A stretch of 62,665 bases of DNA, filler included, from an uncultured virus (IMG/VR IMGVR_UViG_2061766007_001450) (taxonomy: Duplodnaviria > Heunggongvirae > Uroviricota > Caudoviricetes). It is 5 parts of one record of this genome, joined end to end, with 100 filler letters (N's around TTAATTAATTAA, not from the genome) between each part and the next. Parts side by side here need not be neighbours in the genome. Positions count along the whole stretch, not along the records: positions 1 to 1,674 come from IMGVR_UViG_2061766007_001450; positions 1,775 to 30,689 come from IMGVR_UViG_2061766007_001450; positions 30,790 to 31,626 come from IMGVR_UViG_2061766007_001450; positions 31,727 to 34,511 come from IMGVR_UViG_2061766007_001450; positions 34,612 to 62,665 come from IMGVR_UViG_2061766007_001450. One strand, 5' to 3'. Each line of letters opens with the position of its first letter. The first letter of the stretch is position 1. The position numbers and the translations under genes are program-made. The notes under the pieces are model-generated. The model was not told where the DNA came from and did no database searches. It worked only from the letters and a program-made list of their open reading frames with translations. Positions 1-61,824 of the stretch are shown here, piece after piece.

Positions 1-780
1 CTAATCGTAGGCTACGGCATCACCGGCAAAAACTTGCACCGCGAAATCGCCGTCCTAAATCCCGATATTTGCGACATTGACAGCGCAAAAATCCCGCCCG
101 AGCATCAAGGGCGTAATTACAGCAAGTACGATGCAATTTTTGTTTGCGTCGATACGCCTTATGTTTCACGTGAAAAACGATGCGACATTACGGCGGTGGA
201 AAAAGTAATCGACACACACAAAGAGGAACTTGCAGCCGGAGGCGTATTCGTAATCAAGTCAACGATACCACCGCACACAACATCACAACTCAATAATTGT
301 TTCCCGACCGTGCCGATTATTCACAGCCCCGAATACTTCGGCGACACTCAACACTGCAACAACTTTGATTTTGACTTTACCGTGTTGGGCGGACGGCGCA
401 AATGGTGTAACAAGATACAAGCGATGTTGCAGATGTGCCACGATGCACGGCACAGATTTTTCGTGGTTGATGCAGCCGTGGCGGAATTAGCCAAGTATAT
501 GGAGAATTGTTTTTTGGCGACAAAGGTGTCTTTTTGCGTGGAGTTTTACCGAATTGCAAACGACCTCGACATTGATTATAATGCAGTGCGTGAAATCTTC
601 ATACAAGACCCGCGCGTCAATCCGAGCCATACATTTGTTTATCCCGACGCACCGTATTGGGATAGCCATTGCCTCAACAAAGACGTTGCAACAATCGCAG
701 ACAATCCAGAGGCATATCTATTGCGTCAAATTCAAATAATCAACTTCAATGACTTTTGCAAAAAAAACTTTGTAAGTTAA
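1..780 (+). CDS. UDP-glucose/GDP-mannose dehydrogenase-like protein, short form, 5' partial
   Basis: Frame open from base 1 (LIVGYGITG Rossmann motif); CVDTP, IKSTIPP, SPE, AELAKYMENCFLATKVSF, D-PR and SHCLNKD (catalytic Cys) present; ends without the C-terminal UDP-binding domain. Confidence 0.8.
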   Translation, partial: LIVGYGITGKNLHREIAVLNPDICDIDSAKIPPEHQGRNYSKYDAIFVCVDTPYVSREKRCDITAVEKVIDTHKEELAAGGVFVIKSTIPPHTTSQLNNCFPTVPIIHSPEYFGDTQHCNNFDFDFTVLGGRRKWCNKIQAMLQMCHDARHRFFVVDAAVAELAKYMENCFLATKVSFCVEFYRIANDLDIDYNAVREIFIQDPRVNPSHTFVYPDAPYWDSHCLNKDVATIADNPEAYLLRQIQIINFNDFCKKNFVS

Positions 781-831
781 CACTTTTTAACGTTAAAAAT
801 TTGCACGATACAAATATTAATTGTAATTTTG
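777..831 (+). promoter_or_regulatory. Bacteroidota-type promoter with upstream TTAAC-N5-TTAAC
   Basis: TTTG (800-803), 20 nt spacer, TAATTTTG (824-831); matches the Bacteroides -33/-7 consensus; near-identical copy at 3478-3532. Confidence 0.8.
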
Positions 832-877
832 TATCGTAATCAAAAAACAAAAGTTGAACACTTAACACACAAAGAAA

Positions 878-1123
878 ATGAAAGCAGCAAAGAAAACAAT
901 GTTGATTGACGGCGCAAAGGTTGCCTACACACACGGACAGTACGGCAAAAAGGTTGCCGAAATAACATTCAAGGACGGCGACAGCATCACGGTAACAGCA
1001 TCATTCGCGACGTTGCTTGATGCAAAAATCAAAGTGGCAATCAAGGAGCATTACAGCAACGTAATTGCCAACCTTGCTAAGACCGCACGCGAAATCAACA
1101 ACAATGCACGCAAGGCGGCATAA
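878..1123 (+). CDS. Hypothetical early protein (81 aa)
   Basis: Follows the promoter and an A/C-rich leader; homolog at 51991-52215 (A-FA-LL-AK--VAIK-HYS-VI--LA-TAREIN). Confidence 0.75.
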   Translation: MKAAKKTMLIDGAKVAYTHGQYGKKVAEITFKDGDSITVTASFATLLDAKIKVAIKEHYSNVIANLAKTAREINNNARKAA

Positions 1124-1139
1124 TCGAATAGCAATAACC

Positions 1140-1162
1140 GCGCCCGGTTAAGTATCGGGCGC
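1140..1162 (+). repeat. GC-rich intergenic hairpin GCGCCCG-N9-CGGGCGC
   Basis: Perfect 7-bp stem; second copy at 5150-5172 in the same downstream context. Confidence 0.7.
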
Positions 1163-1176
1163 ATAATTCAAAAAAA

Positions 1177-1446
1177 ATGATGACAGAGGAGCAAATGGCG
1201 CAGCCAATAACAATCGAATTTCTCAAAAAGAATTTCGACGACTACGACGCCAACAATAACGTATATTCGACAATGCCGGAGCAATCGCCAAAATGTGTTA
1301 ATGTTTTGCCGTATTTCTGGAAATTCGTAATTTCTGTCTATGACGAAACGAATGATAATTGCTTTACGGCATCAACCATCGGGCAGTTGGTTGCGTTCCT
1401 CAATCTTTGCGGACTTCAATCATTTACATCAACATTAAAAATGTAG
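1177..1446 (+). CDS. Hypothetical protein (89 aa)
   Basis: Close homolog at 5188-5457 with the frame preserved. Confidence 0.75.
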   Translation: MMTEEQMAQPITIEFLKKNFDDYDANNNVYSTMPEQSPKCVNVLPYFWKFVISVYDETNDNCFTASTIGQLVAFLNLCGLQSFTSTLKM

Positions 1447-1450
1447 AGAT

Positions 1451-1674
1451 ATGGAAAAGGTAGTAAAAGACAAAATCCACGAAATTATGGACAAGCAAGG
1501 CTTTTGCTGTCAATTCGATTGGTTTGAGGAAAGTATGACCGAGTTGGCGGAATGGCTTGTGGCGAGATACCGCAGCATCGAAAACAACAATATCGCTTTG
1601 GTTAAGACTTGCGATATGTTCAGAGCGGAAAACGCGAAACTCAAAGAGCGGATTAACGAAATGGTTGAGAGCCG
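1451..1674 (+). CDS. Hypothetical coiled-coil protein, 3' partial
   Basis: Homolog of 5462-5704; runs into a gap. Confidence 0.7.
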
Positions 1675-1718
1675 NNNNNNNNNNNNNNNNNNNNNNNNNN
1701 NNNNNNNNNNNNNNNNNN

Positions 1719-1730
1719 TTAATTAATTAA
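1719..1730. other. Artificial contig linker TTAATTAATTAA
   Basis: All-frame stop 12-mer flanked by N runs; identical at 30734, 31671 and 34556. Confidence 0.95.
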
Positions 1731-1774
1731 NNNNNNNNNNNNNNNNNNNNNNNNNNNNNNNNNNNNNNNNNNNN

Positions 1775-2200
1775 ACAATCGCTAATGTGTCAATGGCTAT
1801 CTTTAAACGAAGTCCGCAAGATAAAGGAAATGGTAAAGAGCGATAAATGGCTCAACCATTTGCATAAGTTCAAGCACGGTCTATGGCTTACTGAAAACGG
1901 ATTAACGCAGCGTCAGACGTTGCTATTCCAATTTCAATGCAGGTATGAAGACAGCGCGAAAAAGGACATTGCGATAATTAACAGACTTTTGGGCGAGGTT
2001 ACAGATGCACTCACACCCGACATCGAAATGTTAAAGCGGTGTCTGTTTAAATTGGTGTCGTTTAATGATTGTGTGTACGAAAGCATTTTGTCAGAGTTCC
2101 TGACAGTCGGCACGTTGTTGCATCACGCCGTCAGAATTTTTGACGAACTCGATAATCCGTGGAAGTATATATCCGAGGGTTACGATATACACAAAACCAT
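1775..2200 (+). CDS. Hypothetical protein fragment (family of 7799-8684 and 46587-47258)
   Basis: Near-identical to 7845-8490; gap on both sides. Confidence 0.7.
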
Positions 2201-2517
2201 NNNNNNNNNNATTTCGCCACAAACAAAATATTTATTCCAAGACATTTGCATTGCACGTCGTATAAATCAATGTTATCAATTCGACGCGAGAGGCATCAGT
2301 TACGCGACGTGGTACGCGGATTTTACATACACATTCGAGGAGATGTGCGAGGCAAACGGCGTTGAATACATCGAACCGACAAACATATCAAAATGAACAC
2401 ATTGCAGAGAGATATTAACGCATTGCTCAATGATATGGCGTATGAGCACCCACGGTATGAAGTAATTTCGGANNNNNNNNNNATGTTTCACGTTGTTAAT
2501 CCTACAAACATACCAAA

Positions 2518-3330
2518 ATGAACACATTGCAGAGAGATATTAACGCCTTGCTCAATGATATGGCGTATGAGCACCCACGGTATGAAGTAATTTCGGATTT
2601 TTTCGAGATGTCCGCAATCGCCATCCGTAACGCCGTATCATACGACAGCCAACGCGCCGAATACGAAAAACGGTATGCAGATGTTGCAAAGAAATACGAC
2701 GGAAAACAGATAAAAGCGTTTTCGATGGCATTGGCGAGGTTTCAAGACGAAATAACACTTGCCATCAACGGCGGCGCACCGTTCAGAGATTGGGCGGGTG
2801 AGTTGTATATGGAAAGCGGTACGTACAATGCTAATTTCGGTCAATTCTTTACGCCTTATGCTTTATCAAAAATGACGGCGATGGTAGGAACGGGCATTGA
2901 CGCAATAAAAGCCAAAATCGCAGAGGATAGCAATTATATAATGACTATCCAAGAGCCGACCGTTGGCGCAGGCGGTCTGATTGTGGCGGCGATGGAATTT
3001 CTAAGGAGCAACGGTATCAACTATTCGTGGAACTGTTTTGTGGATTGCGGCGATATTGATGCAAGATGTTTTTTTATGACGTACTTGACATTGAGCCTTT
3101 TGGGAGTTCCCGCCGTGGTACGTTTGGGAGATGCCTTAAAATTGGAATATCGCGCCGCGTGGTTTACGCCCGCCTACATTTTCGGCTACTCGCATTTTTA
3201 TTCAAGATTGAAAAATGGCGACTATCCGAGGGCGGCGACAATCCCGAAACCAAAATCAGAAACAAAACAAGTAACAGAACCGCCGACAACAAAGGCGGAT
3301 AAATACGGACAATTATCATTATTATTCTAA
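2518..3330 (+). CDS. N6-adenine methyltransferase-like protein (HsdM-like SAM-binding part, no NPPY/F motif)
   Basis: GQFFTP, EPTVGAGG, DID and GDAL motifs; no NPP[FY]; ends GQLSLLF. Confidence 0.7.
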   Translation: MNTLQRDINALLNDMAYEHPRYEVISDFFEMSAIAIRNAVSYDSQRAEYEKRYADVAKKYDGKQIKAFSMALARFQDEITLAINGGAPFRDWAGELYMESGTYNANFGQFFTPYALSKMTAMVGTGIDAIKAKIAEDSNYIMTIQEPTVGAGGLIVAAMEFLRSNGINYSWNCFVDCGDIDARCFFMTYLTLSLLGVPAVVRLGDALKLEYRAAWFTPAYIFGYSHFYSRLKNGDYPRAATIPKPKSETKQVTEPPTTKADKYGQLSLLF

Positions 3331-3331
3331 T

Positions 3332-3448
3332 ATGAAACCATCAACATTAATCGTCGGTTACGGTATCACAGGCAAAAACTTGCACCGCGAAATCGCCGCA
3401 CTTAATCCCGACATTTGCGACATTGACAGCGCAAAGCATCAACTTTAA
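3332..3448 (+). pseudogene. Internally deleted remnant of the UDP-sugar dehydrogenase-like gene
   Basis: MKPSTLIVGYGITGKNLHREIAALNPDICDIDSAK matches the 5' end of the 1-780 gene, then jumps without a gap to sequence matching 739-800. Confidence 0.8.
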
Positions 3449-3477
3449 TAACCATTGCAAAAAAAATCTTTGCAAAG

Positions 3478-3532
3478 TTAACATTTATTAACGTTAAAAA
3501 TTTGCACGTTAAAAATATTATGTGTAATTTTG
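3478..3532 (+). promoter_or_regulatory. Bacteroidota-type promoter (copy of 777-831)
   Basis: TTTG 3501-3504, 20 nt, TAATTTTG 3525-3532. Confidence 0.8.
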
Positions 3533-3578
3533 TAACGTAATCAAAAAAACAAAGTTGAACACTTAACACACAAAGAAA

Positions 3579-3773
3579 ATGAACACGTTAAAAGAAATCG
3601 CAGACCTCGCACGGAGCATCAACAACCACACGGCAGTAACCACCGCCGAAGACGAGCGCGAATACAACAATAACATAACGGCGGCAGCGGTTGCCGTTTA
3701 CAACGAAAATATGTTTTCGGAGAATGGCGACAAATACGCCGCAATTCTCTCAAAGTCTAACATTATAAAATAA
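3579..3773 (+). CDS. Hypothetical protein (64 aa)
   Basis: Same leader as the 878 gene (acttaacacacaaagaaaATG). Confidence 0.6.
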   Translation: MNTLKEIADLARSINNHTAVTTAEDEREYNNNITAAAVAVYNENMFSENGDKYAAILSKSNIIK

Positions 3774-3782
3774 ATCAACACT

Positions 3783-5126
3783 ATGGGAATGACAATCAAA
3801 CGCTTGGAGTTGCGGAACTTTCAAGCAATCAAAGATTTTTCCGCCGATTTTTCGGGCGATGTTTACCTTGTTAAAGGTGAAAACGAAGTCGGCAAGTCCA
3901 CAATCCTAAAATCCATCGTTTGCCTTTTGACCGGCGAGCGCGATGCCGTTTTGAGGAACGGCGAAAAGAACGGCTTTGCAAAGATGATAATTGGCGGCGA
4001 CGGCAAGGAATACACCGTCGAACTTCGCTTTACTGAAAACGACCCACGCGGAACGATAAGCATAAAAGCAAAAGACGGTATGCGCAGCACCAACGTGTCT
4101 ATGCTCCGCACTATCCTCAATTATCACAACTTCGATGCAGAGGAATTTGCAAGATGGAGCGAAAACGCGGAAGGCCGCCGCAAACAGATACAAGTCGTTA
4201 TGGCTTTATTGCCCGAAACAATCAGGCAGCGGGTCACGCAAATAGACGCGGACACAATCAACATCAAAGAGAGCCGCAAGGACGCAAACGCGACGCTCAA
4301 AATCAAGAGTGCCGAACTCGAAAGCATTAAGGCACAATTATTGGCCGGCGACACGGTAACCTACACCGAGCCAATAGACTTGTCGGAATTGATGCAGGAG
4401 AGCGCAGAAGCGGCAGCACGTGCGGCAGACGCGAAGCACGTGAAAGAAAAGATGGAGAAGATGCAGAAACGCATCGACGAGGAAATTCCGGCGGAAATCG
4501 AGCAAGCCGAAACAGACCTTGCAAAAGCACTTGCGGCCTACGAAGCGGCAAAGAAAAGGCGCGATGATAGGGTGGCGGAAATCAGCAAGGAGCGCGGCGA
4601 ACTGACTGAAAAAATTGGCAGAGGCAAAGAATGGCTTGCCAAATACGAGAGCGAGCCTCAAAAAGATGTTGCCGCCGAACTCGCCAAGGCGCAAGCGCAC
4701 AATGCGAAATGCAGCATTGTAAAATTGTTTCACGAGAAACAAAGTGAATTGCAGAACGCCAAGACGAATGTTGATGCAATGAATGACAAACTCGCCAAAC
4801 TTGCAGAGGAGCGCAGCACGTTAATCAATCAGTCAGAATTGCCGATAAAAGGTCTGTCATTCGGCGAGGACGGCTTGATATTGAACGACGTTCCATTTGT
4901 CGTAGGCAAAGTGTCCGACAGTCAGATAATGGAAGTGGCGGCAAAGTTGGTAATTGCATCAAACCCGACTGTAAACATTTTCAGGATTGGACGCGGCGAG
5001 AGCCTCGGTACGAAACGACTGCAATCCATAGTAAACCTTGCAAAAGAAAACGGTTTTCAGGGCTTTATCGAGCAAGTGGAGCGAGGACAAGAGACAATCA
5101 GCATTGAAGAATACCGCGAGGTGTAA
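3783..5126 (+). CDS. SMC/Rad50-like coiled-coil ATPase
   Basis: IKRLELRNFQAIK, Walker A GENEVGKS, long central coiled coil, degenerate signature (VSDSQ) and Walker B (IFRIGRGE). Confidence 0.8.
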   Translation: MGMTIKRLELRNFQAIKDFSADFSGDVYLVKGENEVGKSTILKSIVCLLTGERDAVLRNGEKNGFAKMIIGGDGKEYTVELRFTENDPRGTISIKAKDGMRSTNVSMLRTILNYHNFDAEEFARWSENAEGRRKQIQVVMALLPETIRQRVTQIDADTINIKESRKDANATLKIKSAELESIKAQLLAGDTVTYTEPIDLSELMQESAEAAARAADAKHVKEKMEKMQKRIDEEIPAEIEQAETDLAKALAAYEAAKKRRDDRVAEISKERGELTEKIGRGKEWLAKYESEPQKDVAAELAKAQAHNAKCSIVKLFHEKQSELQNAKTNVDAMNDKLAKLAEERSTLINQSELPIKGLSFGEDGLILNDVPFVVGKVSDSQIMEVAAKLVIASNPTVNIFRIGRGESLGTKRLQSIVNLAKENGFQGFIEQVERGQETISIEEYREV

Positions 5127-5187
5127 CAATTAACAGAATAACAACAACCGCGCCCGGTCAAGCATCGGGCGCATAATTCAAAAAAAA

Positions 5188-5457
5188 ATGATAACAGAGA
5201 AGCAAATGGCGCAGCCAATCACGGTTGAATTTCTCAAAAAGAATTTTGCCGATTACAGCGAAAATAACAACGTGTATTCTACAACGCGGGAACAATCACC
5301 AAGATGTGTTAATGTTTTGCCGTATTTCGGGAAATTCGTAATTTCTGTCTATGACGAAACGAATGATAATTGCTTTACAGCATCAACTATCGGGCAGTTG
5401 GTTACGTTCCTCAACCTTTGCGGATTGAATGATTTTGTTTCAACATTAAAAATGTAG
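5188..5457 (+). CDS. Hypothetical protein (89 aa)
   Basis: Homolog of 1177-1446. Confidence 0.75.
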   Translation: MITEKQMAQPITVEFLKKNFADYSENNNVYSTTREQSPRCVNVLPYFGKFVISVYDETNDNCFTASTIGQLVTFLNLCGLNDFVSTLKM

Positions 5458-5461
5458 AGAT

Positions 5462-5704
5462 ATGGCAGCAACGACTATTGCAGAGAAAATCGCCGAAATT
5501 GAGTGCAAACAGAATTTTACCTCGGATTGGTTTGAGGAAAGTTTGCAGGAAATGGCGGATTTTGTAAAAGCGAAATACCGCAGCATCGAAAACAACAATA
5601 TCGCCTTGGTTAAGACTTGCGATATGTTCAGGGCGGAAAACGCGAAACTCAAAGAGCGGATTAACGAAATGGTTGAGAGCCGCCGCGAGTATCTTGATGT
5701 TTAA
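5462..5704 (+). CDS. Hypothetical coiled-coil protein (80 aa)
   Basis: Homologs at 1451 and 25273-25350. Confidence 0.75.
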   Translation: MAATTIAEKIAEIECKQNFTSDWFEESLQEMADFVKAKYRSIENNNIALVKTCDMFRAENAKLKERINEMVESRREYLDV

Positions 5705-5728
5705 CTTTTCACGTGAAACAAGTCAACA

Positions 5729-6172
5729 ATGAGAATGAGAGAGCATTTATTCAGAGGTAAGTACACCGACGGAAACGGCAACCAACATTGGATTGTCGGA
5801 CACTACACCGAGGGTGCTTATGTCAATCCCAACACGGGCGAGGAAACAAAACGCTACATCATCAGCAACGAGGACGGACTGTTTGATGTCGCCCCCGAAA
5901 GCGTAGGAGAATGGACGGGATTTTGGGACGCATCAGAGCCGCCAAAGAGGATTTTCGAGGACGATGTAATTGAGAGCCAAAACGGCGTACAACATTGGTT
6001 GCAATGGGACGACGAGACGGCAGGGTTTCAGGCGCACTCAATCCAACTGCCGAATTGGGCGGTGGATAGCGGTTGCAGACCGAACCAAGAGTGGATAAAG
6101 AAATACGGCAAAAAGGTTGTAGCGAACTATTATGACAGCGTTTTTGCCGCAAAATGCAATGATAAAAAATGA
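5729..6172 (+). CDS. YopX-family protein
   Basis: REHLFRG...W-VG, SVGEWTG-D, IFEDDVI, VV-N-YD pattern. Confidence 0.75.
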   Translation: MRMREHLFRGKYTDGNGNQHWIVGHYTEGAYVNPNTGEETKRYIISNEDGLFDVAPESVGEWTGFWDASEPPKRIFEDDVIESQNGVQHWLQWDDETAGFQAHSIQLPNWAVDSGCRPNQEWIKKYGKKVVANYYDSVFAAKCNDKK

Positions 6173-6522
6173 GTAGCACGGCGAAATTCAAAAACGAAAA
6201 TATTAAAATGGATATAATAAACTTTAAAACGGCTTACAGCGTCCACGATAAAGTATATATACTTGTAGGTGGCGAAATCAGACTTGGCAAGATAGCCGCA
6301 ATCGCCTTTTGTGGCGATGGCTATGCTTACGATGTTGAGACGTGCGCGGCATATTCAAAAACCGCAACAACAACATCAAGACGCAAGGAAAGTGAAATCC
6401 GCATCACCCTTGAAGATGCAATCAATTATGCCGTCGAAACATACCGCAAAAGTCTTTGCGATGATTGGGGTTTTGATGTTCAAGATGACGGCAAAATTGT
6501 TTCACGTAAAACAAAAAATTAA
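6169..6522 (+). CDS. Hypothetical protein
   Basis: ATGA overlap with the upstream gene; homolog at 24585-24830. Confidence 0.7.
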   Translation: MSSTAKFKNENIKMDIINFKTAYSVHDKVYILVGGEIRLGKIAAIAFCGDGYAYDVETCAAYSKTATTTSRRKESEIRITLEDAINYAVETYRKSLCDDWGFDVQDDGKIVSRKTKN

Positions 6523-6530
6523 CAATAAAT

Positions 6531-6562
6531 TTTGCATTATACAAAAATTATTGTTATCTTTG
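6531..6562 (+). promoter_or_regulatory. Bacteroidota-type promoter of the ssb operon
   Basis: TTTG 6531-6534, 20 nt, TATCTTTG 6555-6562; conserved at about 24489-24520 (-). Confidence 0.75.
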
Positions 6563-6679
6563 CAGTAATAAAAACCGAGCGTAATTCCGCCGTAACCAAT
6601 CGGCTGTCGCTATACAGAACATAGGCGGCGAGGTTCGACACCAAAGTTATTTGCAACCGCCATTTTTAAAATCTTTGCT

Positions 6680-6814
6680 ATGGAAACGACAAAGACAGAC
6701 AAAAAAATGAAACGGTATAAATTTTGGGTGTGGGTGTGGCTGATACTGACAGCCGCCGCATACATCAATGCCGTTATTGATATAATCAACGTAATCAAAA
6801 AATTATGGGAGTAA
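6680..6814 (+). CDS. Small membrane protein (44 aa) overlapping the ssb start
   Basis: METTKTDKKMKRYKFWVWVWLILTAAAYINAVIDIINVIKKLWE; conserved upstream of ssb in B, similar ORF in C. Confidence 0.6.
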   Translation: METTKTDKKMKRYKFWVWVWLILTAAAYINAVIDIINVIKKLWE

Positions 6815-7266
6815 ACAAACAAATTATCCTTGGCAACGTGGGACAAGAGCCGAGGATAAGCACCTTTTCAGACGGCGGCACGGTTGCCAATTTCTCCGTG
6901 GCGTACACTGAAAAGGGGTACACTACAAAAGATGGGCGACAGATACCAGACAGCACCGAATGGTTTAACATTGTTGCCAAAAACAGCCTTGCAAACGTGG
7001 TGCAGCAATACGTACACAAAGGCGATAAAATCTACATTGAGGGCAAGACCAAGACCCGCGAATATGTAGGCAGCGACAATGTACAAAAGCGCATCACCGA
7101 AGTACACGCCGAAAAAATAGACCTTTTGGGGCGTTTGACGGTTCAAGATGCAACAGCGCAACCGCAGCAACAAGACACGGCGGCGCAACTGTACGGACAG
7201 CCGCAGCAAACAACGATGCAGCAACCGGCGGTAGCACCGCCCAAAGACGATGATTTGCCATTTTAA
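6805..7266 (+). CDS. ssb: Single-stranded DNA-binding protein
   Basis: NKQIILGNVGQEP, VANFSVA, TEWFNIV, KGDKIYIEG, tail DDDLPF. Confidence 0.95.
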   Translation: MGVNKQIILGNVGQEPRISTFSDGGTVANFSVAYTEKGYTTKDGRQIPDSTEWFNIVAKNSLANVVQQYVHKGDKIYIEGKTKTREYVGSDNVQKRITEVHAEKIDLLGRLTVQDATAQPQQQDTAAQLYGQPQQTTMQQPAVAPPKDDDLPF

Positions 7267-7286
7267 CTTTTGACATATTAGTAACG

Positions 7287-8872: not shown

Positions 8873-8888
8873 ACAATATTGATTTACG

Positions 8889-52316: not shown

Positions 52317-52321
52317 AACCA

Positions 52322-53741: not shown

Positions 53742-53749
53742 TTTCTTGA

Positions 53750-53798
53750 TGTTTTACGTGAAACAAAGGGCGGGGCGGTGATGCCGCCGCCCGTGGTT
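53750..53798 (-). repeat. GC hairpin fused to a parS-like site
   Basis: GGGCGGCGGCATCACCGCCCCGCCC-TT-TGTTTCACGTAAAACA; copies at 56389-56435 and 59072-59119; hairpin only at 57358, 59794 and 60441. Confidence 0.8.
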
Positions 53799-54780
53799 AT
53801 TTACTCGTTGTACTTGGTGATGATGTAGTCTTTAACCTCGGCAAAAGTCTTNNNNNNNNNNNNNNNNNNNNNNNNNNNNNNNNNNNNNNNNNNNNNNNNN
53901 NNNNNNNNNNNNNNNNNNNNNNNNNNNNNNNNNNNNNNNNNNNNNNNNNNNNNNNNNNNNNNNNNNNNNNNNNNNNNNNNNNNNNNNNNNNNNNNNNNNN
54001 NNNNNNNNNNNNNNNNNNNNNNNNNNNNNNNNNNNNNNNNNNNNNNNNNNNNNNNNNNNNNNNNNNNNNNNNNNNNNNNNNNNNNNNNNNNNNNNNNNNN
54101 NNNNNNNNNNNNNNNNNNNNNNNNNNNNNNNNNNNNNNNNNNNNNNNNNNNNNNNNNNNNNNNNNNNNNNNNNNNNNNNNNNNNNNNNNNNNNNNNNNNN
54201 NNNNNNNNNNNNNNNNNNNNNNNNNNNNNNNNNNNNNNNNNNNNNNNNNNNNNNNNNNNNNNNNNNNNNNNNNNNNNNNNNNNNNNNNNNNNNNNNNNNN
54301 NNNNNNNNNNNNNNNNNNNNNNNNNNNNNNNNNNNNNNNNNNNNNNNNNNNNNNNNNNNNNNNNNNNNNNNNNNNNNNNNNNNNNNNNNNNNNNNNNNNN
54401 NNNNNNNNNNNNNNNNNNNNNNNNNNNNNNNNNNNNNNNNNNNNNNNNNNNNNNNNNNNNNNNNNNNNNNNNNNNNNNNNNNNNNNNNNNNNNNNNNNNN
54501 NNNNNNNNNNNNNNNNNNNNNNNNNNNNNNNNNNNNNNNNNNNNNNNNNNNNNNNNNNNNNNNNNNNNNNNNNNNNNNNNNNNNNNNNNNNNNNNNNNNN
54601 NNNNNNNNNNNNNNNNNNNNNNNNNNNNNNNNNNNNNNNNNNNNNNNNNNNNNNNNNNNNNNNNNNNNNNNNNNNNNNNNNNNNNNNNNNNNNNNNNNNN
54701 NNNNNNNNNNNNNNNNNNNNNNNNNNNNNNNNNNNNNNNNNNNNNNNNNNNNNNNNNNNNNNNNNNNNNNNNNNNNNNNN

Positions 54781-55075
54781 AAAACGTGCGCCCGAGCTTG
54801 TCGCAGTCGGGGTGCTTAATCAGCAGCCCAGCGTCTATCAGACGCTCCACGCGCTTTTTAATGCCCGACTTTGATTGGATATGCAGCATTGGCAACTCGT
54901 CCAAAATTAATTGATGCGCCACCCAATAATAAGCCTTTGCGCCGTGTACGGTGGTCTCCGCGACTCCGCTTGTCGCAAAATCCTTTATAAATTCCAGGAC
55001 GGCGATGTCGTTGAAGTCGAGCTCCGCGTTGAGCCTCATCGCCGCCGCTTGATTGATGTTTACTGTGTATTTCAT
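54781..55075 (-). CDS. Putative replication initiator, N-terminal winged helix (3' partial)
   Basis: MKYTVNINQ...LDF-DIAVLEFI...YYWV----I-DELPML...IKKRVERL-DAGLL. Confidence 0.6.
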
Positions 55076-55275
55076 AGCAAAAAAAATTGAGCCTAAAATA
55101 CAGACCGCCATCTGTATTAAAGGCTCATTTGGTTGCATTTCTGCATTATGTCTTGTGATGCAATGGCGGTTGCATCTNNNNNNNNNNNNNNNNNNNGCAA
55201 TGTTGGGCAATCTTGCAAATTTTTTGTTAAAAATCTTTGCAATTTCTGCAAGAATTTGCAAGAATTTGCAAAGAT

Positions 55276-55716
55276 TTAAAACAGTGTCATCTGCACAAAA
55301 CGGCGTTTTGCGAGCTCAATTTCAATTGCCTTGTGTATGTCCCTTTTATATTTGCTTTTATAGAGATATTTAAGGCAGTCTAATATTGCGCTGTCCTCGT
55401 TTTGGAACGTCGGCCTTGAGAATGATGCAGGGATCGACGTGTCCAAAACGCCGCAACAAAAGACACCCCACACCCATTTGTCGGGTGCAATTTGCGCCGT
55501 CTGTATCTCAATGACGGTGCAATCGTTGGCCTTGATGTCGATGCGGTGCGGGTTCGTACATACGTCATACATATTGTAATTGAACCCGCACACCACCGCG
55601 ATTGTGTCGTCTATGCCCTCGATGCCTGGGTGGTCGTCTTCCATCTTGAAAAATTCGTCGATGGTTAACCATTTGCCGAGACACGCCAAATAATGGTATT
55701 TTTCATTTGTTACCAT
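55276..55716 (-). CDS. Hypothetical protein ending QMTLF
   Basis: Probable start MVTNEK; C-terminal clamp-binding-like motif. Confidence 0.6.
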   Translation of the reverse strand: MVTNEKYHYLACLGKWLTIDEFFKMEDDHPGIEGIDDTIAVVCGFNYNMYDVCTNPHRIDIKANDCTVIEIQTAQIAPDKWVWGVFCCGVLDTSIPASFSRPTFQNEDSAILDCLKYLYKSKYKRDIHKAIEIELAKRRFVQMTLF

Positions 55717-55898
55717 AATTGCAGCATTAAAAGCCAAACATTTTGCAAAGTGTCTCCCATACGGCTTGGAAGTTCGCGCCGACGACTCCAATTGTCGTGC
55801 CGCCAACGGTCACCCAAGCCCAGACCCTGCCTCCGTTGTTGCTTTTGTCTGTGATTTTTATCCAATTTGCCATTTTCTTTGTGTTTTAGTGTTAGTTA

Positions 55899-56087
55899 TT
55901 AATCGAAGTTTCTGTAATTCGGACAGCGGTCGGCGAGGCTGCAATCACGGCAATCAAAACCGTTTGCGTCGAAGTCACAATTGCCGCCGTCAAAGGTGTA
56001 CAGCCCTTTGCGCTCTCCGTCTGTCTCTGGTCGGGATTTGATTTCCTCCAAATACCACCCGCCGTTGTTGTGTGAGTCGTCGTACAT
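55899..56087 (-). CDS. Small Cys-rich protein
   Basis: C---C--C-----C cluster. Confidence 0.5.
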   Translation of the reverse strand: MYDDSHNNGGWYLEEIKSRPETDGERKGLYTFDGGNCDFDANGFDCRDCSLADRCPNYRNFD

Positions 56088-56089
56088 AG

Positions 56090-56380
56090 TTAATACATTT
56101 GTGTTAATATTGAAACATCTTCTTTCATTGTTTCAAATTCTTGGATTATTTGTTTTTTTGTCATTCCCGACATTGTTTCAATGTCGAGTTCTAAACTAAG
56201 TCCAGCATCGCAAAACGTCACAAAAACAGTCTCGCCACGTCCCGCGAATACCGCGCCGAATTTGTCGTAATTCTTAAAGCCGAGACTTTTTGCAAGTAGT
56301 TTTGCTGCCTCGTCGATTTCCTCAATTGCGGTTAAAATAAGGTTGTGCGCCTTGACCGTTTTTTTCTCCCATCGTTTCAT
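56090..56380 (-). CDS. Hypothetical protein (96 aa)
   Basis: Starts after the hairpin-parS leader CATCAAGAAAATG, as does 53741. Confidence 0.65.
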   Translation of the reverse strand: MKRWEKKTVKAHNLILTAIEEIDEAAKLLAKSLGFKNYDKFGAVFAGRGETVFVTFCDAGLSLELDIETMSGMTKKQIIQEFETMKEDVSILTQMY

Positions 56381-56475
56381 TTTCTTGATGTTTTACGTGA
56401 AACAAAGGGCGGTGGCGGGGATGCCGCCGCCCGTCTGTTTNNNNNNNNNNNNNNNNNNNNNNNNNNNNNNNNNNN

Positions 56476-57325
56476 GTTCTGGTGTCGCCGTTGGTTCGGG
56501 CTGTTGCGCCTGGGGTTCGGGTGCCATCTGTCCCTCGGCGGGTTCGGGCTGTGCCTCTGTCAGCGGTTTCCACACCGTCAAGTCCAACTGCTCCATTGCG
56601 GCAATCTCCGCCGCGCACTCGTCAGAATGACCCCAGTATTTGCGCACGAAGTCGAGCGTCCGTTTTGCGCCGCCAAGGTCGCCACGGTTATAAGTGGCGT
56701 AAAAACCGTTTACGCACTCTCTAAATGTGCGCTGTTTCTGTGTCTGCTGCGGCTGTTGCGGCTGTTGGCCTCTCTGTTGCTGGTTGCCTCTCTGTTGTTG
56801 GTTGCCTCTCTGCTGCGGCTGCTCCTTTGCGTCGGGGTCTTGCTCTGTCTGAATACCAAAGACGAGACCCAACAAATACCTTGCGATATACGTGAATGTG
56901 CTCCCGTCGGCCTTGATTGCCTCGGGGTTCGATGCCAATCTAAACGGGTAGATAATTGGCTCGGTTGTTTCTCCCGTCTCCACGTCCACCATGTGGATAG
57001 AAAAGAAACGGTAGCCTTGCGGCATCAGTTGGACCGCGAGCTCGCTCCATACGGGCGAGATTACGTAGTCGACACCGTACTCCGCCAAGGCGGGTGTCAG
57101 TTTCTCCAATACGTTGGTGAGGGTGGCGTACTTTATCTCCTTTTGGTTGCCCTTTTGCTCGCTGCCAACCTTGCCCGTGCCGTCCTTATAGACTTTGCCG
57201 ACGGCGTTTTTCACGGATAGGATTTTTTGGGCGAGTGTCATTTTGGTTTTTGCCTCGGTGGGCTGTGCCGCCGTCTGTGCCTGGGGTTCGGGCTGAACCT
57301 CGGCGGGTGTTGTTTTCTTTGCCAT
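56476..57325 (-). CDS. ERF-family single-strand annealing protein (stop probably in gap)
   Basis: YATL--V---L-PAL-EYG, GSTFTYIARY-L---FGI--E-DPDA; 18-bp QQQRGN repeats at 56766-56816. Confidence 0.85.
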
Positions 57326-57390
57326 AGCGTGTTCGTTTGTGTGTGTGTGTGTGAATTTGGGCGGGGCGGTGTGCCGCCGCCCGTTTATTG

Positions 57391-57561
57391 TTAGTTGGCG
57401 TTTGCCATCTTTTTACTTTCAAGTTTGCGATACTCTTTTAACGCTGCATCATAATCGTTAAAGTTAGAGTAAACGACCTCATCGTGGTCATAAATTCTCC
57501 ATTCCGTGCCTATGAATGTATCGTAGCCACCTAACTTAATGTGTAATTCTCTATTTGTCAT
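57391..57561 (-). CDS. Small early protein (56 aa)
   Basis: MTNRELHIKLGGYDTFIG...; between a repeated promoter and a repeated hairpin. Confidence 0.6.
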   Translation of the reverse strand: MTNRELHIKLGGYDTFIGTEWRIYDHDEVVYSNFNDYDAALKEYRKLESKKMANAN

Positions 57562-57725
57562 TTTCGTGTGTTTTTGTGTGTTAGTATTTCGTTTAACTTT
57601 GATGATACAAAATTACATTAATTTTCTGTACATAGCAAATATTTTTAGTTAATAAGTGTTAAGAAATTAGTTTTCGATGTTAAAAAGTGCAACGTGTTGA
57701 TATTTAATTATTTAGGCATAATAAA

Positions 57726-57767
57726 CAAAAAAACGCCTATATACGTATATAGGCGCGTATATAGGCG
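57726..57767 (-). terminator. Terminator with 22-bp palindrome and duplicated arm
   Basis: CGCCTATATACGTATATAGGCG (57734-57755) with a T-run on the minus strand. Confidence 0.55.
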
Positions 57768-58030
57768 GTGTATGTTCTTAATAATTAAAAATTTGGTAAT
57801 GCGTTTGGGTCGCGAAAATGCGCATTAAGTCCCCAAAAGTCGCCGCCAAACAACGACTTTGACATTGGAGACCATACGCGGGACGGCAACAAACAGAACC
57901 CGCCTTCCACGGCGTTTGTGTTTCACGTGAAATTTGCACGGGTTCATAAATGTGAATAAGTACACGGTCGTCCCCCTCGAAAAAATCACCGTTTTTAAAT
58001 ATGTGTTGTGACCTTTGCCCTTATACATAG

Positions 58031-58622
58031 TTAAATCAATTTGAGTTTTCGACATTCAAAAAAGCATTTTACAAGGGCTCGCACGTCCTCCATAGAGTTG
58101 TGCGCGGGGAACGCCTCGCCATTAAATAATTTTGCATACAGCTCCTCCAATCGGGGGAACTTGCCAGGATTCCCGTTGGGAAACCTCGCGCCGACAAAAT
58201 CAATAATTGCCCGTTCTTTCATAGTGTCAAACAACGGCATTGTGTGCAAGTAGTTTGCAAATCCTTTCGCCCGTTGCGCGTTACTCATGCGCACGTACTC
58301 GGCAATAATAACGGGCATATCGAAGCCCGCATTGTGCGCACACAACGCGTCTGCAGACTTCACATCGTTCCAAAACTGCAAAAACGCCGTTTTGTACGGC
58401 ACACCCTCGGCGAGTGCGCGGTCGGTGGTGATGCCGTGGACGGCGGCAGNNNNNNNNNNNNNNNNNNNNNNNNNNNNNNNNNNNNNNNNNNNNNNNCTCC
58501 TTGCCGTCCACGCTCCACGATATTTGCACGATGCGCGGAAAGGCTGATGTTTGGATAAACGGGTCATAAACGCCACGAGGTATCGTTCCCGTTGTTTCCG
58601 TATCAAAGAAAAGAATTTTCAT
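58031..58622 (-). CDS. DEDDh 3'-5' exonuclease (one gap)
   Basis: FFDTETTG, AHNAGFD, FDT, AHNSMEDV. Confidence 0.9.
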
Positions 58623-59062
58623 TATAAATTGTGTTTTATGCCGTCAACAATCAATATGTTGCCGTCTTTTTTTAAGTTAAAAAAGGCAATCGAGCCTTGG
58701 TTGTTTGTCAACGACTCGCTTGTCGTTGTTAGGGTGTACTCCACGCCGTCTTTTAATGCCGCCAACATTTCCAGCTTTTCACGGAAAAAAATATTTTTCT
58801 TTTTTCCATTTTCTGTCAGCATGAACGGAAAGAGCCAATTGGGCAACACCCGTGGGTGGCGGTGTGTCTCTATGCCCGACAAGTTGCCGTCGGTGAACTT
58901 TACAAGGATTTTGATGTTCACGCCGTCTGTTGTCGATGCAAAAAACGATTTTGAGCGGAAAAACTCGCCCTTTGCTTTCTTAGCGTAACACGCGGATATG
59001 ATACCGAACATCATGTCCTTCTGTGTCTCGTACCATTCCGCTAATTCTATTACAAAAACCAT
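58622..59062 (-). CDS. Hypothetical protein (146 aa)
   Basis: TAATG overlap with the exonuclease. Confidence 0.65.
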   Translation of the reverse strand: MVFVIELAEWYETQKDMMFGIISACYAKKAKGEFFRSKSFFASTTDGVNIKILVKFTDGNLSGIETHRHPRVLPNWLFPFMLTENGKKKNIFFREKLEMLAALKDGVEYTLTTTSESLTNNQGSIAFFNLKKDGNILIVDGIKHNL

Positions 59063-59121
59063 TGTTGCCGATGTTTTACGTGAAACAATAAGGCGGGGCG
59101 AGTGCCGCCGCCCGTGGTTTG

Positions 59122-59430
59122 CTAATCGAGCAATTTTCCGAAATTATCAAATTGAATTTCGTGGCAGTCGCAAATGCCGCAGTCAATATGATGCTGATTG
59201 GTATTGCGAATTTTACGCGCCAACATTACGCAGGTTTTTGTCGTGAATACTCGCGTCGCTGCATAGTGTGTGTTATCGGGGAGCATACCGATAGTTTTGA
59301 TACGAAGATAACCGCTCCTTGCGTCTATACGTTTATATTCTACGCTTTCGATGTTGTACTCCTCATAAAAAGGAATTACATCGCTAATGCGAAGATTTCC
59401 GAGGTTGAATGTGCTAATGTATGCTTTCAT
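59122..59430 (-). CDS. Hypothetical early protein (102 aa)
   Basis: Between a repeated promoter and a hairpin-parS element. Confidence 0.65.
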   Translation of the reverse strand: MKAYISTFNLGNLRISDVIPFYEEYNIESVEYKRIDARSGYLRIKTIGMLPDNTHYAATRVFTTKTCVMLARKIRNTNQHHIDCGICDCHEIQFDNFGKLLD

Positions 59431-59534
59431 TTTCGTGTGTTTTTGTGTGTTGTATTTCGTTTTGTTTGATGGTACAAATTTACATTAACTTTTTGTATAA
59501 TGCAAATTATTTTAGTTAATAGATGTTAAAATTA

Positions 59535-59777
59535 TTAACTTTTTTTGCAATTTTTGTCCCACTCAAAAAGACCGTCGGGTGTCGTCTCCAAGATACGGCA
59601 AAGGCACACAATGGCACGGGGCGCAATCTTTTTTGTGCGCCCTTTCATAAGGTTAAAAAGGTTGATATTTTGCGCCAGCGGTGCCGAGTTCGGCCACAAT
59701 TCGGCGCAAATCTCCGCCCGTTTCTGCATTTGGACGGGGCGGTCAAATCTCGAAAGTAAAGTCTCGATTATTTTCAT
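59535..59777 (-). CDS. Cro/XRE-like HTH regulator
   Basis: AEICAELW...NLMKGRTKKI...LCRILETTPDGLF. Confidence 0.7.
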   Translation of the reverse strand: MKIIETLLSRFDRPVQMQKRAEICAELWPNSAPLAQNINLFNLMKGRTKKIAPRAIVCLCRILETTPDGLFEWDKNCKKS

Positions 59778-59826
59778 TTTTTATGTTTTTTGTGGGCGGT
59801 CGGGGTGATGCCGCCGCCCGTGGTTA

Positions 59827-60154
59827 TTACTCTTGTTTTGCTGCACGTGAGACATTTAGCCATTTTATTGCCTTGATTTCCTTGAAAAGTTCGTAGAAAT
59901 ACGCCCTGCGGTCGCTCTTGTCGTCCAGGGTGTCGAGGGTGTCGTTGTGCTTGAAGATGTACTCGTCGAGGGTGTCGTACACCTTTTGCAATTTGCTTTC
60001 CAAGGTGGAGATTTTTGCGGCTGCTTCTTTTGATGCTTTCAATATGCNNNNNNNNNNTATCTTCGTTTCCCGACATATACGCAACGTTGATTTTTTCAAA
60101 CTGCTCGTCGGTGGGGTAGTAACCCGTTCTTTGTACAAATTCCGTGTGTGTCAT
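59827..60154 (-). CDS. Hypothetical coiled-coil protein (gapped)
   Basis: MTHTEFVQRTGY...FEKINVAYM; follows a repeated promoter. Confidence 0.6.
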
Positions 60155-60491
60155 TTTGATAGTGTTTTTGTGTGTTAGTATTTCGTTTTGTTTGATGCAA
60201 CAAAATTACGTTAAAATATTGTACTATGCAAATATTTTATATTAAAATTTGTCAACGTAGTAATTTTTTTTAATCTTGTTTTTTCAACGTCTTGATCCCG
60301 CGAATAATGAAACCAAAACCCACCGCGACGCCCAGCAGCCACCATTTGCTGCCGTCTATCAAAGACGCGCCGCAAATAAACACCGCAACCGTGCCAATTA
60401 AAATATCTCTCATTTGGATTGTTTTTTTTGATTAAACAAAGGGCGGTGGCGGTGTGCCGCCGCCCGTCTGTCGTGCTGTCTGTCGTGCTGA

Positions 60492-61535
60492 TTATGCAGC
60501 CAGCAAAATGTCGCCGTATGCCTGCATTATCTTTGCGCTTGCCGTGCCGCCGCCGAGAATGTTGTCAAACTTTTTCTCCGCGTCGTGCTGACCTTTTGAC
60601 ACGTATGTTTTTGTGTTCTGGAAATACGTTGTGATGCCGTTAAACAGCCAGTTGCCGTTCTTGGTCTTGAACATATCTTGGCCAACACCGTCTTCAACGC
60701 TCTTGCGGAGGTCGTAATACGTGTTGATATTGCGCATACCCAAGTCGTCGATGCTTGGACCGTTGGCCTTAAAGATGGGGTACTTGTCACCAAAAGCAAC
60801 GCGACCGCAAACCATCTTGACCGTAGCCTCGTCCACCTTGATGTTGTTGAGGAGTGCGGTTTTCTCCTCAATGGCTTTTTTTGTAGCCTCAAAACAGCCC
60901 AAAACCTTTGCAGCGTGTTCGAGGTCTTCTTTCATTCTCAACTTTACGTTGACGGTGTGACGGAAGGCGAATTTGGAATAGTTGCAGCCGAGAGCGTATT
61001 GCAACGTGTTGTTGCATACAACCCTTACGGGGGTGAGCATTACCGTAACAGCTCCCGAACCGTCGTGGCTGGTGGTTATCACCGCGTAAACCTCTGCATC
61101 GTCACCGAGGATTTCGCCGCATTTGAAACGCTCGGGGAACTTTGCGGTGATGAATACGCGCTCGCCGTGTCCCAAAACACCCGCGCTCTCGATGAACGGC
61201 TCGGCGGCATCTCCACCCGCGCAAAGGTTGTTAACAAATTGGAAGGCATCAGCGTTTTGCACCACTCCGTAAGACTTCTTGACAAGTCCGAGCGGCGCGC
61301 CGTTATCCTCTCGGATAATGTGGTAAAATTCGGGATTGGCTGCAAATCCGCCGTTCTTGGTCTGATAGTACACGGGCATTTTTGCGACCGTGTAGTCTGC
61401 GTGGCTGGCTGCGAGGGCTGTCTCAACGGTCATTTCACCGTCGAAAACAACGCCGAGTTCGTGCCATGCTCTCTCTTTCCTGCCGTTCTCTGCGAAACTT
61501 GCAACTCCGTTAATTTCTTCAATCATGTGTGCCAT
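60492..61535 (-). CDS. DUF932-family phage/plasmid protein
   Basis: AWHELG, LG-V---Y-VVQN-DAF-F, ESAGVLG-GERVF, TSHDGSG, TPVRVVCNNTL, RHT. Confidence 0.88.
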   Translation of the reverse strand: MAHMIEEINGVASFAENGRKERAWHELGVVFDGEMTVETALAASHADYTVAKMPVYYQTKNGGFAANPEFYHIIREDNGAPLGLVKKSYGVVQNADAFQFVNNLCAGGDAAEPFIESAGVLGHGERVFITAKFPERFKCGEILGDDAEVYAVITTSHDGSGAVTVMLTPVRVVCNNTLQYALGCNYSKFAFRHTVNVKLRMKEDLEHAAKVLGCFEATKKAIEEKTALLNNIKVDEATVKMVCGRVAFGDKYPIFKANGPSIDDLGMRNINTYYDLRKSVEDGVGQDMFKTKNGNWLFNGITTYFQNTKTYVSKGQHDAEKKFDNILGGGTASAKIMQAYGDILLAA

Positions 61536-61762
61536 AGTGTGTAGTGTTTTTTGTGTTAGTAATTGGTTTAACTTTGATGCTACAAAATTACATTAAAATT
61601 CTGTATAGTGCAAATTATTTTAGTTAAGATTTGTTAAAATATTTAATTTTTTTTTGGACGGGTAGGATTGGACAATTTAAGTATCTGAAAACCAACAAAA
61701 AAACACCCTACAAAGGGCAATTGTAGGGTATTTGTAGGGTGCTATATTTCAAATTAGCAACA

Positions 61763-61800
61763 AAAAAGACAGCACCATAAAATTATGATGCTGTCTTTTT
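61763..61800. terminator. Bidirectional terminator
   Basis: AAAAAGACAGCA...TGCTGTCTTTTT. Confidence 0.75.
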
Positions 61801-61808
61801 CGTTACAT

Positions 61809-61824
61809 TGTTGCACGTGAAACA
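61809..61824. promoter_or_regulatory. parS-like site abutting a stop codon
   Basis: TGTTGCACGTGAAACA, exact match to TGTTNCACGTGAAACA. Confidence 0.75.

Follow-up and report, generated by a model that had tools for sequence, protein, structure and literature searches.

Dispersed parS-like sites in a lineage of siphovirus-like phages, putative docking sites for host ParB

Why should a phage genome be studded over its whole length with the partition site of bacterial chromosomes, and which protein might read it there? The question is raised by a stretch of 62,665 nucleotides (called the window below) from an uncultured virus of the Caudoviricetes (IMG/VR IMGVR_UViG_2061766007_001450). The window consists of five parts of one record joined by filler and carries dispersed sites which closely resemble chromosomal parS, the site bound by the partition protein ParB (Spo0J). 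On the evidence of sequence comparison these sites are cis-acting DNA elements of the chromosomal parS type, which are kept under selection genome-wide. We tentatively suggest that host ParB may dock on them over the full length of the phage DNA, a reading which we consider quite possible and hold with reserve.

Census of the sites in the window and its relatives

Thirty sites with at most two mismatches to TGTTTCACGTGAAACA were found in the window, the first at 162-177 and the last at 61809-61824; one mismatch occurs in 16 and two in 14, and no site is perfect. In 100 dinucleotide-preserving shuffles the mean was 0.08 sites and the largest count was one. Since just three additional sites have exactly three mismatches, the class is sharply bounded, and the most frequent 8- to 12-mers of the window include words from the motif. 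The consensus of the sites is exactly TGTTTCACGTGAAACA with a nearly invariant inner TTTCACGTGAAA, and common variants in the phages are TTTTTCACGTGAAACA, ATTTTCACGTGAAACA and TGTTTCACGTAAAACA. Changes often seen in the phage sites are T at position 2, A at position 11, the outer AT pair and G at position 7. When compared with the 16-bp parS palindrome tGTTNCACGTGAAACa, the inner 12 bp proved nearly invariant across 56 half-sites. The original prediction had counted 30 imperfect sites within two mismatches, 13 of them in one segment, and had called the motif chromosomal-type parS far above chance. The same count and coordinates were recovered, including 13 sites between 37072 and 61809, and the shuffles leave no doubt about the enrichment; the number itself, however, is inflated by redundant copies.

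The window comprises 65 runs of N (4745 N in total), many of exactly 10 N, and near-duplicates, tandem or inverted, flank its gaps. The same phage regions recur two or three times in diverged form (70-97% identity), for the most part inverted. Of the 57.9 kb of called bases just ~28 kb could be aligned to the complete relative described below, as many shuffled pieces, and the gene order is scrambled relative to it. The window is a chimeric scaffold, as would be expected from the joining of strain variants of one phage, and not a clean genome. Clustering by flanking sequence, with the motif masked, grouped 34 sites (33 with at most three mismatches and one with four) into 17 clusters. Because of these clusters and the duplicated regions, the independent loci amount to about 17-20 and not to 30. 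The sites are listed here without strand; frames on the minus strand are marked (-).

162-177, one mismatch (TGTTTCACGTGAAAAA): inside the 5'-open reading frame (ORF) 1-780 (UDP-glucose dehydrogenase-like)
4726-4741, one mismatch (TGTTTCACGAGAAACA): inside ORF 3783-5126 (AAA/SbcC-like ATPase)
5705-5720, two mismatches: fills the gap from the stop of ORF 5462-5704 to the ATG at 5729, 8 nt upstream of it
6498-6513, one mismatch (TGTTTCACGTAAAACA): last codons of ORF 6169-6522, ~40 nt upstream of the -7 box at 6555
7586-7601, two mismatches: inside ORF 7287-7802
8857-8872, one mismatch (TGTTTCGCGTGAAACA): intergenic, ATG of a ParB_N-like gene 16 nt downstream
11142-11157, two mismatches: abuts the stop of a C5-methylase gene (11141), terminase ATG 11186 28 nt downstream
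12925-12940, one mismatch: intergenic, immediately upstream of a promoter -33 element (TTTGCA)
13749-13764, one mismatch: poorly coding stretch adjoining a terminator-like GC hairpin
16097-16112, two mismatches: second, inverted copy of the 13749 locus
16736-16751, two mismatches: second, inverted copy of the 12925 locus
19584-19599, one mismatch: between the stop of a C5-methylase gene, ORF 19600-20664 (-), and ATG 19562 (-); copy of the 11142 locus
22042-22057, one mismatch: inverted copy of the 8857 locus
23552-23567, two mismatches: inside an ORF, copy of the 7586 locus
27341-27356, two mismatches: one locus in three copies, together with 29435 and 38861
29435-29450, one mismatch: copy of the 27341 locus
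31830-31845, two mismatches (ATTTTCACGTGAAACA): inside the virion-protein ORF 31679-32272 (-)
37072-37087, one mismatch: 3' end of ORF 37032-37517 (-), 65 nt upstream of ATG 37006
38861-38876, two mismatches: inside the 81-aa coiled-coil ORF 38738-38983 (-), third copy of the 27341 locus
41703-41718, one mismatch: intergenic, diverged copy of the 12925 locus
44706-44721, two mismatches: between the stop of a C5-methylase gene, ORF 44722-45768 (-), and the small-terminase ATG 44677
46353-46368, two mismatches: second ParB_N-like copy with its ATG (46337) 15 nt downstream
47822-47837, two mismatches: 2 nt upstream of ATG 47819, overlapping the SSB stop of ORF 47836-48279 (-)
50191-50206, two mismatches: YopX-like ATG 50188 2 nt downstream
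50305-50320, one mismatch: intergenic, just past the stop of ORF 50324-51142 (-)
53750-53765, one mismatch: ATG 53741 8 nt downstream, a GC-rich terminator-like hairpin ahead of the site in the sense of transcription
56389-56404, one mismatch: 8 nt upstream of ATG 56380, overlapping the ERF stop of ORF 56393-57325 (-); hairpin-site-ATG unit
57919-57934, two mismatches: inside ORF 57825-58055 (-)
59072-59087, one mismatch: 9 nt upstream of ATG 59062; hairpin-site-ATG unit
61809-61824, one mismatch (TGTTGCACGTGAAACA): abuts the stop of ORF 61825-62634 (-)

Three of these sites adjoin GC-rich terminator-like hairpins (GGGCGG..GCCGCCGCCC) at 53766-53800, 56405-56440 and 59088-59115, which gives a repeated unit of the early region in three copies: a hairpin, the parS-like site, 8-9 nt and an ATG.

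A cleaner view was provided by a relative with a portal protein 98% identical to that of the window phage, which a portal search of a species-representative genome collection located on a contig of 43,954 bp in a metagenome-assembled genome (MAG) labelled Eubacteriales. The ends of the contig overlap by 141 bp, so it represents a complete circular genome of 43,813 bp, which we call phi. Phi holds 28 sites (17 with one mismatch and 11 with two), three more with three mismatches and no perfect one; in the remaining ~2.46 Mb of its MAG there are only two perfect sites and one with two mismatches. A further relative, a 32-kb contig, carries 22 sites, and four IMG/VR contigs with 94-98% portal identity show the motif at 5-6 sites per 10 kb. 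No site was found in 34 IMG/VR contigs with 56-64% portal identity (~575 kb in total) or in three complete genomes of motif-less relatives. A metagenome scan added members only of two identity classes (96-100% and 56-66%), without intermediates, and the sites occur in the first class only. The carriers are a lineage of ~44-kb siphovirus-like gut phages of Bacteroidota-type hosts, in which the sites were acquired.

The motif recurs in a second lineage, G013 (L075), a sequence of 25.9 kb with 38% G+C and an estimated completeness of 56%. Its 18 sites, also located at gene junctions and often right after a stop codon, include no exact 16-mer and three with a perfect 14-bp core. In its structural proteins G013 is more distant from phi (portal identity 50%) than the motif-less genomes are (61%), which implies either two gains of the motif or repeated losses. 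The recurrence of the motif in so distant a phage fits a target defined by the host better than a regulator private to one lineage. The enrichment on which the original prediction rested thus also holds in clean relatives (28, 22 and 18 sites).

Anatomy of the sites and selection on the DNA

Nearly all genes of phi lie on one strand. With crude ATG-ORF gene calls, 16 of the 28 sites are intergenic, a class comprising 7.5% of positions (binomial P ~1e-11), and in several cases the site makes up the whole gap between stop codon and ATG. After the tape-measure gene, the gap in phi is the 16-nt site and nothing else; three motif-less relatives leave 1-3 nt there, and in G013 the gap is 47 nt long and contains a site. 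About 11 of the 28 sites lie inside ORFs. Four of them in structural genes were compared with relatives and use all three reading frames (GTG TTT CAC GTG AAA; GAT GTT TCA CGT GAA ATC; TAT TTC ACG CGA AAC). Sites within ORFs coincide with amino acid differences: the phi orthologue of the window site at 31830 encodes VFHVK, and the corresponding peptide of motif-less relatives is VFGIR or LFGVR. The use of three frames and the amino acid replacements therefore indicate selection on the nucleic acid, overriding the protein sequence.

The sites of phi are spaced more evenly than expected by chance, at one per ~1.6 kb with a largest gap of 3.9 kb. Their spacing has a coefficient of variation of 0.59 versus 0.95 for random positions, and only 0.3% of 20,000 random placements were as even. 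A hallmark of chromosomal parS, a few sites clustered near the origin or centromere, is missing here, as the 28 sites are distributed around the whole 43.8-kb circle.

Within the sites the two halves differ. Perfect TGTTTCAC half-sites account for 26 of the 56 halves in phi, and 26 of the 28 sites combine one perfect half (GTTTCAC) with one that is slightly degraded. If the halves were independent about six perfect sites would be expected and none was seen (P ~0.001); since a threshold-affinity model also makes any single perfect sequence rare, avoidance of the perfect site is not claimed as proven. Mismatches are commoner in the half facing the downstream gene (26 versus 13 sites, binomial P 0.053, a weak trend) and A or T makes up 47 of the 67 substituted bases, a bias compatible with A-rich gene leaders.

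Sites and promoters meet in a minority of cases. Phi contains 13 sense-strand intergenic TAnnTTTG boxes with TTTG or TTGC ~20 nt upstream, an arrangement which we take to be the Bacteroidota promoter consensus; eight of them form a repeated early-promoter family. Three of the 28 sites touch such promoters: two are located 2-5 nt upstream of late-operon -7 boxes, and one, corresponding to the window site at 12925, lies directly upstream of a -33 element. The matching box in the window, whose layout is the same in phi, is the following.

12968-12975: -7 box TATTTTTG of the Bacteroidota-type promoter beside the site at 12925

The layout of site and promoter is found again in G013, before the tape-measure gene and before a tail gene. 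No parS-like site lies within 80 nt of the other 10 TAnnTTTG boxes of phi, which include all eight of the early family; most sites are therefore not promoter elements.

Candidate readers of the sites

Identification of the reader depends on what host and phage encode. A Shine-Dalgarno-like (SD-like) sequence precedes 2 of 63 starts in phi versus 7 of 14 in a chromosomal piece of its MAG; together with the TAnnTTTG promoters the few SD sites point to a Bacteroidota host, in agreement with the host group assumed in the original prediction. The MAG of phi encodes Spo0A and carries a noc-soj-spo0J-like locus (L047) with two perfect parS sites, at 8530 and 8568, which are 38 bp apart between a Noc/ParB-like gene and the soj-spo0J pair and lie downstream of gidA/gidB-like genes. 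Noc, parS and soj-spo0J downstream of gidA/gidB are the usual Firmicute arrangement. Two more MAGs of the same Eubacteriales family contain related motif-less contigs (20 and 42 kb) without flanking host DNA, and this binning is weak evidence of a host. A Firmicute host with entrapment of the phage in spores is regarded as unlikely, because the translation and promoter signals of the phage disagree with the Eubacteriales bin; Bacteroidota do not sporulate.

In each of three genomes of the Bacteroidaceae family a single canonical ParB is encoded and the chromosomal parS sites, which are perfect or read TGTTTCACGTGAAACG, number one or two, and the ParB of the candidate host genomes carries the HTH_ParB domain. 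The candidate hosts, MAGs and Bacteroidaceae-family genomes alike, share this parS in perfect or one-mismatch form; the host uses this parS, whether it belongs to the Eubacteriales or the Bacteroidota. In a further Bacteroidaceae-family genome of 5 Mb (G397) the two-mismatch variant TGTATTACGTGAAACA occurs nine times over three contigs, presumably as part of a repeated element.

Neither ParA nor the helix-turn-helix (HTH) of ParB was detected in Pfam scans of the window and phi. A six-frame search for HTH_ParB at E<=1 found no match on phi, the 32-kb relative or the second lineage, and the same search finds the two chromosomal ParB/Noc genes of the MAG. The phages hence encode no self-contained ParABS cassette, as a cognate ParA and an HTH-bearing ParB are both missing. 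The statement of the original prediction that no ParA or HTH-bearing ParB is visible was confirmed; it had overlooked a gene for a ParB_N-like protein without HTH, present in two copies.

8889-9470, + strand: ParB_N-like protein, 193 aa, with the ParB/Srx-fold N domain only and no ParB HTH
45909-46337, - strand: second ParB_N-like copy, truncated by a gap

The gene is followed by genes for a SAM-methyltransferase (9463-10110) and a C5-methylase (10107-11141), and its product has GGNMRYRA where ParB has GERRxR. A profile comparison with PDB sequences matched Spo0J/ParB over residues 25-105 only (E 4e-4). The AlphaFold model (mean predicted local distance difference test score, pLDDT, 76) is confident for the N domain alone, for which Foldseek returned ParB, Noc, KorB (PDB 8qa8/8qa9) and sulfiredoxin. 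Homologues are numerous (2389 at E<=1e-5), and their distribution does not match that of the motif. Among 80 viral loci with a homologue (51-92% identity) the motif is present at five, four from the phi clade and the fifth being G013; the other 75 (51-74% identity) contain a single perfect site in total and show no dispersed motif at all. Among five distant portal relatives, one possesses a homologue and lacks the motif. The protein was rejected as the reader of the sites, since only its N domain is matched and its homologues do not follow the motif; it may be a candidate accessory factor. Phage proteins that have the ParB-CTPase fold and are fused or adjacent to DNA methyltransferases are described as a common arrangement (PMC12704722), and the position of the 193-aa gene directly upstream of two methyltransferase genes resembles it. 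No DNA site is assigned to that class in this source, and here the presence of the gene fails to predict the motif, which accompanies it at 5 of 80 loci.

As the phages encode neither ParA nor an HTH-bearing ParB, the reader is most likely the host's own ParB. Docking of host ParB would be the simplest account of a host-type parS, the missing phage reader, the occurrence in two lineages and the selection at the DNA level. Recruitment of host ParB, as proposed originally with hitch-hiking, titration or coating as candidate functions, would likewise be the most economical interpretation and is supported in part; the closest precedent, phi29, had not been named. In the Bacillus phage phi29, five parS sites are bound by host Spo0J and the phage genome is entrapped in the prespore (PMC2731898). 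Phi29 resembles phi in that a phage without a ParB of its own carries host-type parS, and there the host partition protein acts on the phage genome. It differs in having five sites instead of ~28 spread evenly over 44 kb, many of them inside genes, and in its sporulating Firmicute host, where phi has Bacteroidota-type promoters. Because of these promoters and the scarcity of SD sites, sporulation is an unlikely context here, even though the MAG of phi has Spo0A.

The sequences show the sites, the selection on them at the DNA level, their restriction to lineages, the missing phage ParB HTH, and the ParB and parS of the candidate hosts; binding by host ParB and all its downstream effects are inferred. 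After injection, host ParB dimers would dock on the ~28 sites, and the whole phage DNA would become a ParB-bound molecule with many centromeres. The unintegrated genome could then be positioned or inherited by the host ParABS system, a carrier-state analogue of the Spo0J-dependent entrapment of phi29. At the sites abutting late-operon -7 or -33 boxes, binding might damp the promoters until replication out-titrates ParB.

A more specific version, which appears rather doubtful to us, assigns a role to the "hemi-perfect" tiling: with one exact and one detuned half, the sites would let host ParB dock genome-wide in a manner unlike that at the chromosomal centromere, resulting in a phage-wide ParB coat, carriage through host divisions and a copy-number timer on the late promoters. 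In Pseudomonas aeruginosa and some other species ParB is reported to bind half-parS sites, GTTTCAC, in narrow peaks without spreading (PMC7022226). The many dispersed sites with one good GTTTCAC half, exactly one of which is perfect in 26 of the 28 phi sites, are similar; the half-sites of that source are isolated chromosomal heptamers, whereas here a second half is present within one or two mismatches and the sites are on a phage.

If host ParB does read the sites, the virus would have rewritten its own genome, proteins included, for loading with a host segregation protein. The phi29/Spo0J precedent would then reach into one of the major gut phyla and up to the scale of a whole genome, and a mechanism would be suggested for the poorly understood persistence of non-lysogenic Bacteroidota phages. 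Natural parS variants that are hemi-perfect and never perfect would further be at hand for separating ParB docking from clamp loading. The density of sites is far above that of phi29, the single known precedent for host-type parS on a phage without ParB. The literature search (supplements outside it) turned up no account of parS sites at such density in phages of Bacteroidota, and engineered lambda carrying parS, an imaging tool described in a preprint, is not relevant here.

Several observations weigh against docking of host ParB. Most close relatives do without the sites, and the exact consensus 16-mer is absent from the window, phi, the 32-kb relative and G013, which a pure model of best possible ParB binding does not predict. 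Pfam scans of the window and phi did not find an integrase, a replication initiator or a partition gene; a segregation benefit is therefore conjecture, despite the resolvase-type serine recombinase of the window. The sole complete genome comes from an Eubacteriales-labelled MAG and has Bacteroidota-type expression signals, so the host is a candidate only, and the positional statistics of phi depend on the crude gene calls named above. The ParB_N-like gene is common to both motif-bearing lineages (67% identity), and a phage factor is therefore possible. Apart from these objections, the linear phage-plasmid N15 offers a parallel, with partition sites scattered over a phage genome instead of being clustered; N15 encodes its own SopAB and has few dispersed centromere sites of its own type.

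A phage-encoded reader is the content of the first alternative, which we regard as unlikely. The sites would be operators for an unrecognised phage DNA-binding protein, possibly together with the ParB_N-like protein and the neighbouring methyltransferases, in a genome-wide control or marking network like that of KorB and OB, which resembles host parS or was copied from it. Plasmid RK2 encodes KorB, a ParB-family clamp with an HTH, and its 12 OB operators are palindromes scattered genome-wide and partly at promoters. A palindrome dispersed over a whole mobile genome and partly at promoters is found here too, but no such protein is encoded, the palindrome is that of host parS, and promoters are touched by only 3 of 28 sites. 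With the exception of a DUF285 repeat protein, which also occurs in motif-less relatives, the ParB_N-like gene is the sole non-structural gene found common to both lineages, and a site lies 16-19 nt upstream of its start. The three promoter-abutting sites of phi with their counterparts in G013 would suit an operator, and avoidance of the exact host 16-mer could insulate a phage system from host ParB. This is opposed by the lack of a ParB-type HTH in six frames, the model of the ParB_N-like protein that is confident in the N domain only, the 75 homologue loci without this or another dispersed motif, and the motif-less relative with a homologue. Moreover, the consensus stays exactly host parS without a shifted specificity, and chance identity of a private 16-bp palindrome with parS would be very unlikely. 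If a phage protein does read the sites, they would define the DNA target of a parS-mimicking regulator.

A co-evolving phage regulator with a lineage-specific palindrome was considered as well, and no alternative dispersed palindrome was found in distant relatives. At equivalent places in the portal relatives the commonest 12-mer palindromes have only 2-4 copies in a locus (<=21 kb). In phages with a ParB_N-like homologue they reach 1-8 copies, the highest being A/T runs, and frequent 10-mers there are local tandem repeats and not a dispersed motif.

Quite improbable is a second alternative in which the sites bind host ParB for titration: ~28 sites on each of many genomes would soak up ParB and the ParA/SMC functions, and host segregation and division would be disorganised to the benefit of the phage, whose own DNA would not be segregated. 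The disproportion between one or two chromosomal parS in candidate hosts and 28 per phage genome would fit, as would the dispersal of the sites, unlike a centromere cluster, and the fact that no lysogeny or plasmid genes were found in phi. Titration needs neither even spacing nor placement at promoters, however; a benefit of ParB loss to a lytic phage is undocumented in the literature searched, and most relatives are without sites.

Far less can be said for a function at the level of RNA or single-stranded DNA, with an intercistronic hairpin that serves processing, stability or translational coupling and resembles parS by coincidence; we consider this very improbable. Its basis would be the 16 intergenic sites, many of which are 0-26 nt upstream of start codons or directly past stops, and the tendency of mismatches towards the half nearer the downstream gene. 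Against it, the folding energy of the real variants is only -0.3 to -0.7 kcal/mol versus -3.9 kcal/mol for the perfect palindrome, and the changes are never compensatory, with asymmetric halves in 26 of 28 sites, unlike structured-RNA or repetitive extragenic palindromic (REP-like) elements. Weak folding and non-compensatory changes thus argue against a hairpin, as do the ~11 sites inside ORFs; the identity with parS would be left unexplained.

An artefact, namely chance matches multiplied by redundant assembly of strain variants, was suggested by the chimeric window in which several sites are copies of one locus and has practically no probability left, being contradicted by the shuffles (0.08 sites expected), the ~17 independent flank clusters and the 28 sites of the gap-free circular genome phi.

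Further features of the window

The window encodes a portal protein, small and large terminase, head and tail proteins, ERF, SSB, YopX and an exonuclease, together with amidase endolysins, three C5-methylase copies, other methyltransferases, a small serine recombinase and glycosyltransferases. In a megablast search no cultured phage matched positions 1-13000 and 44000-62665. The recombinase is absent from phi.

28359-29249, + strand: small serine recombinase (Resolvase and HTH_7, 296 aa)

It is flanked by direct copies of a ~180-bp segment at 27294-27470 and 29388-29564, with an inverted copy at 38738-38923, and a parS-like site is present in each of them; the arrangement may reflect an invertible or mobile segment, or else an artefact of the scaffold.

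The early-promoter family is represented in the window by nine copies, which the parS-like sites do not overlap.

824, 3525 and 6555, + strand: -7 boxes of the early-promoter family
61590, 60208, 59482, 57615, 52269 and 24496, - strand: -7 boxes of the early-promoter family

The order in each copy is TTAAC..TTAAC, AATTTGCA and TAATTTTG (a -33/-7 pair of Bacteroidota type), and an A-rich leader with ACACAAAGAAA-ATG at its end comes next. The TTAACA/TTAACG direct repeat upstream of these promoters may be a separate operator.

A UDP-glucose dehydrogenase-like protein (1-780, + strand), DXD glycosyltransferases (50324-51851, - strand) and a radical-SAM protein are also encoded. The sugar enzymes, the several DNA methyltransferases and the radical-SAM protein hint at possible functions in the modification of DNA or surface sugars.

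A palindrome of ~26 bp with the core TTTTCGTGACCTCACGAAA is present at 35651-35670, 35934-35953 and 37714-37733 and encodes ..FREVTKM.. in a 230-aa protein. Stretches of 27-37 nt recur with 89-96% identity in about 17 of 401 Bacteroidaceae-family genomes. A reading of these short matches as spacers of clustered regularly interspaced short palindromic repeats (CRISPR) was rejected in favour of a conserved palindromic coding motif. Two of three copies inspected lie within ORFs of more than 80 aa, and the motif is conserved at the nucleotide level.

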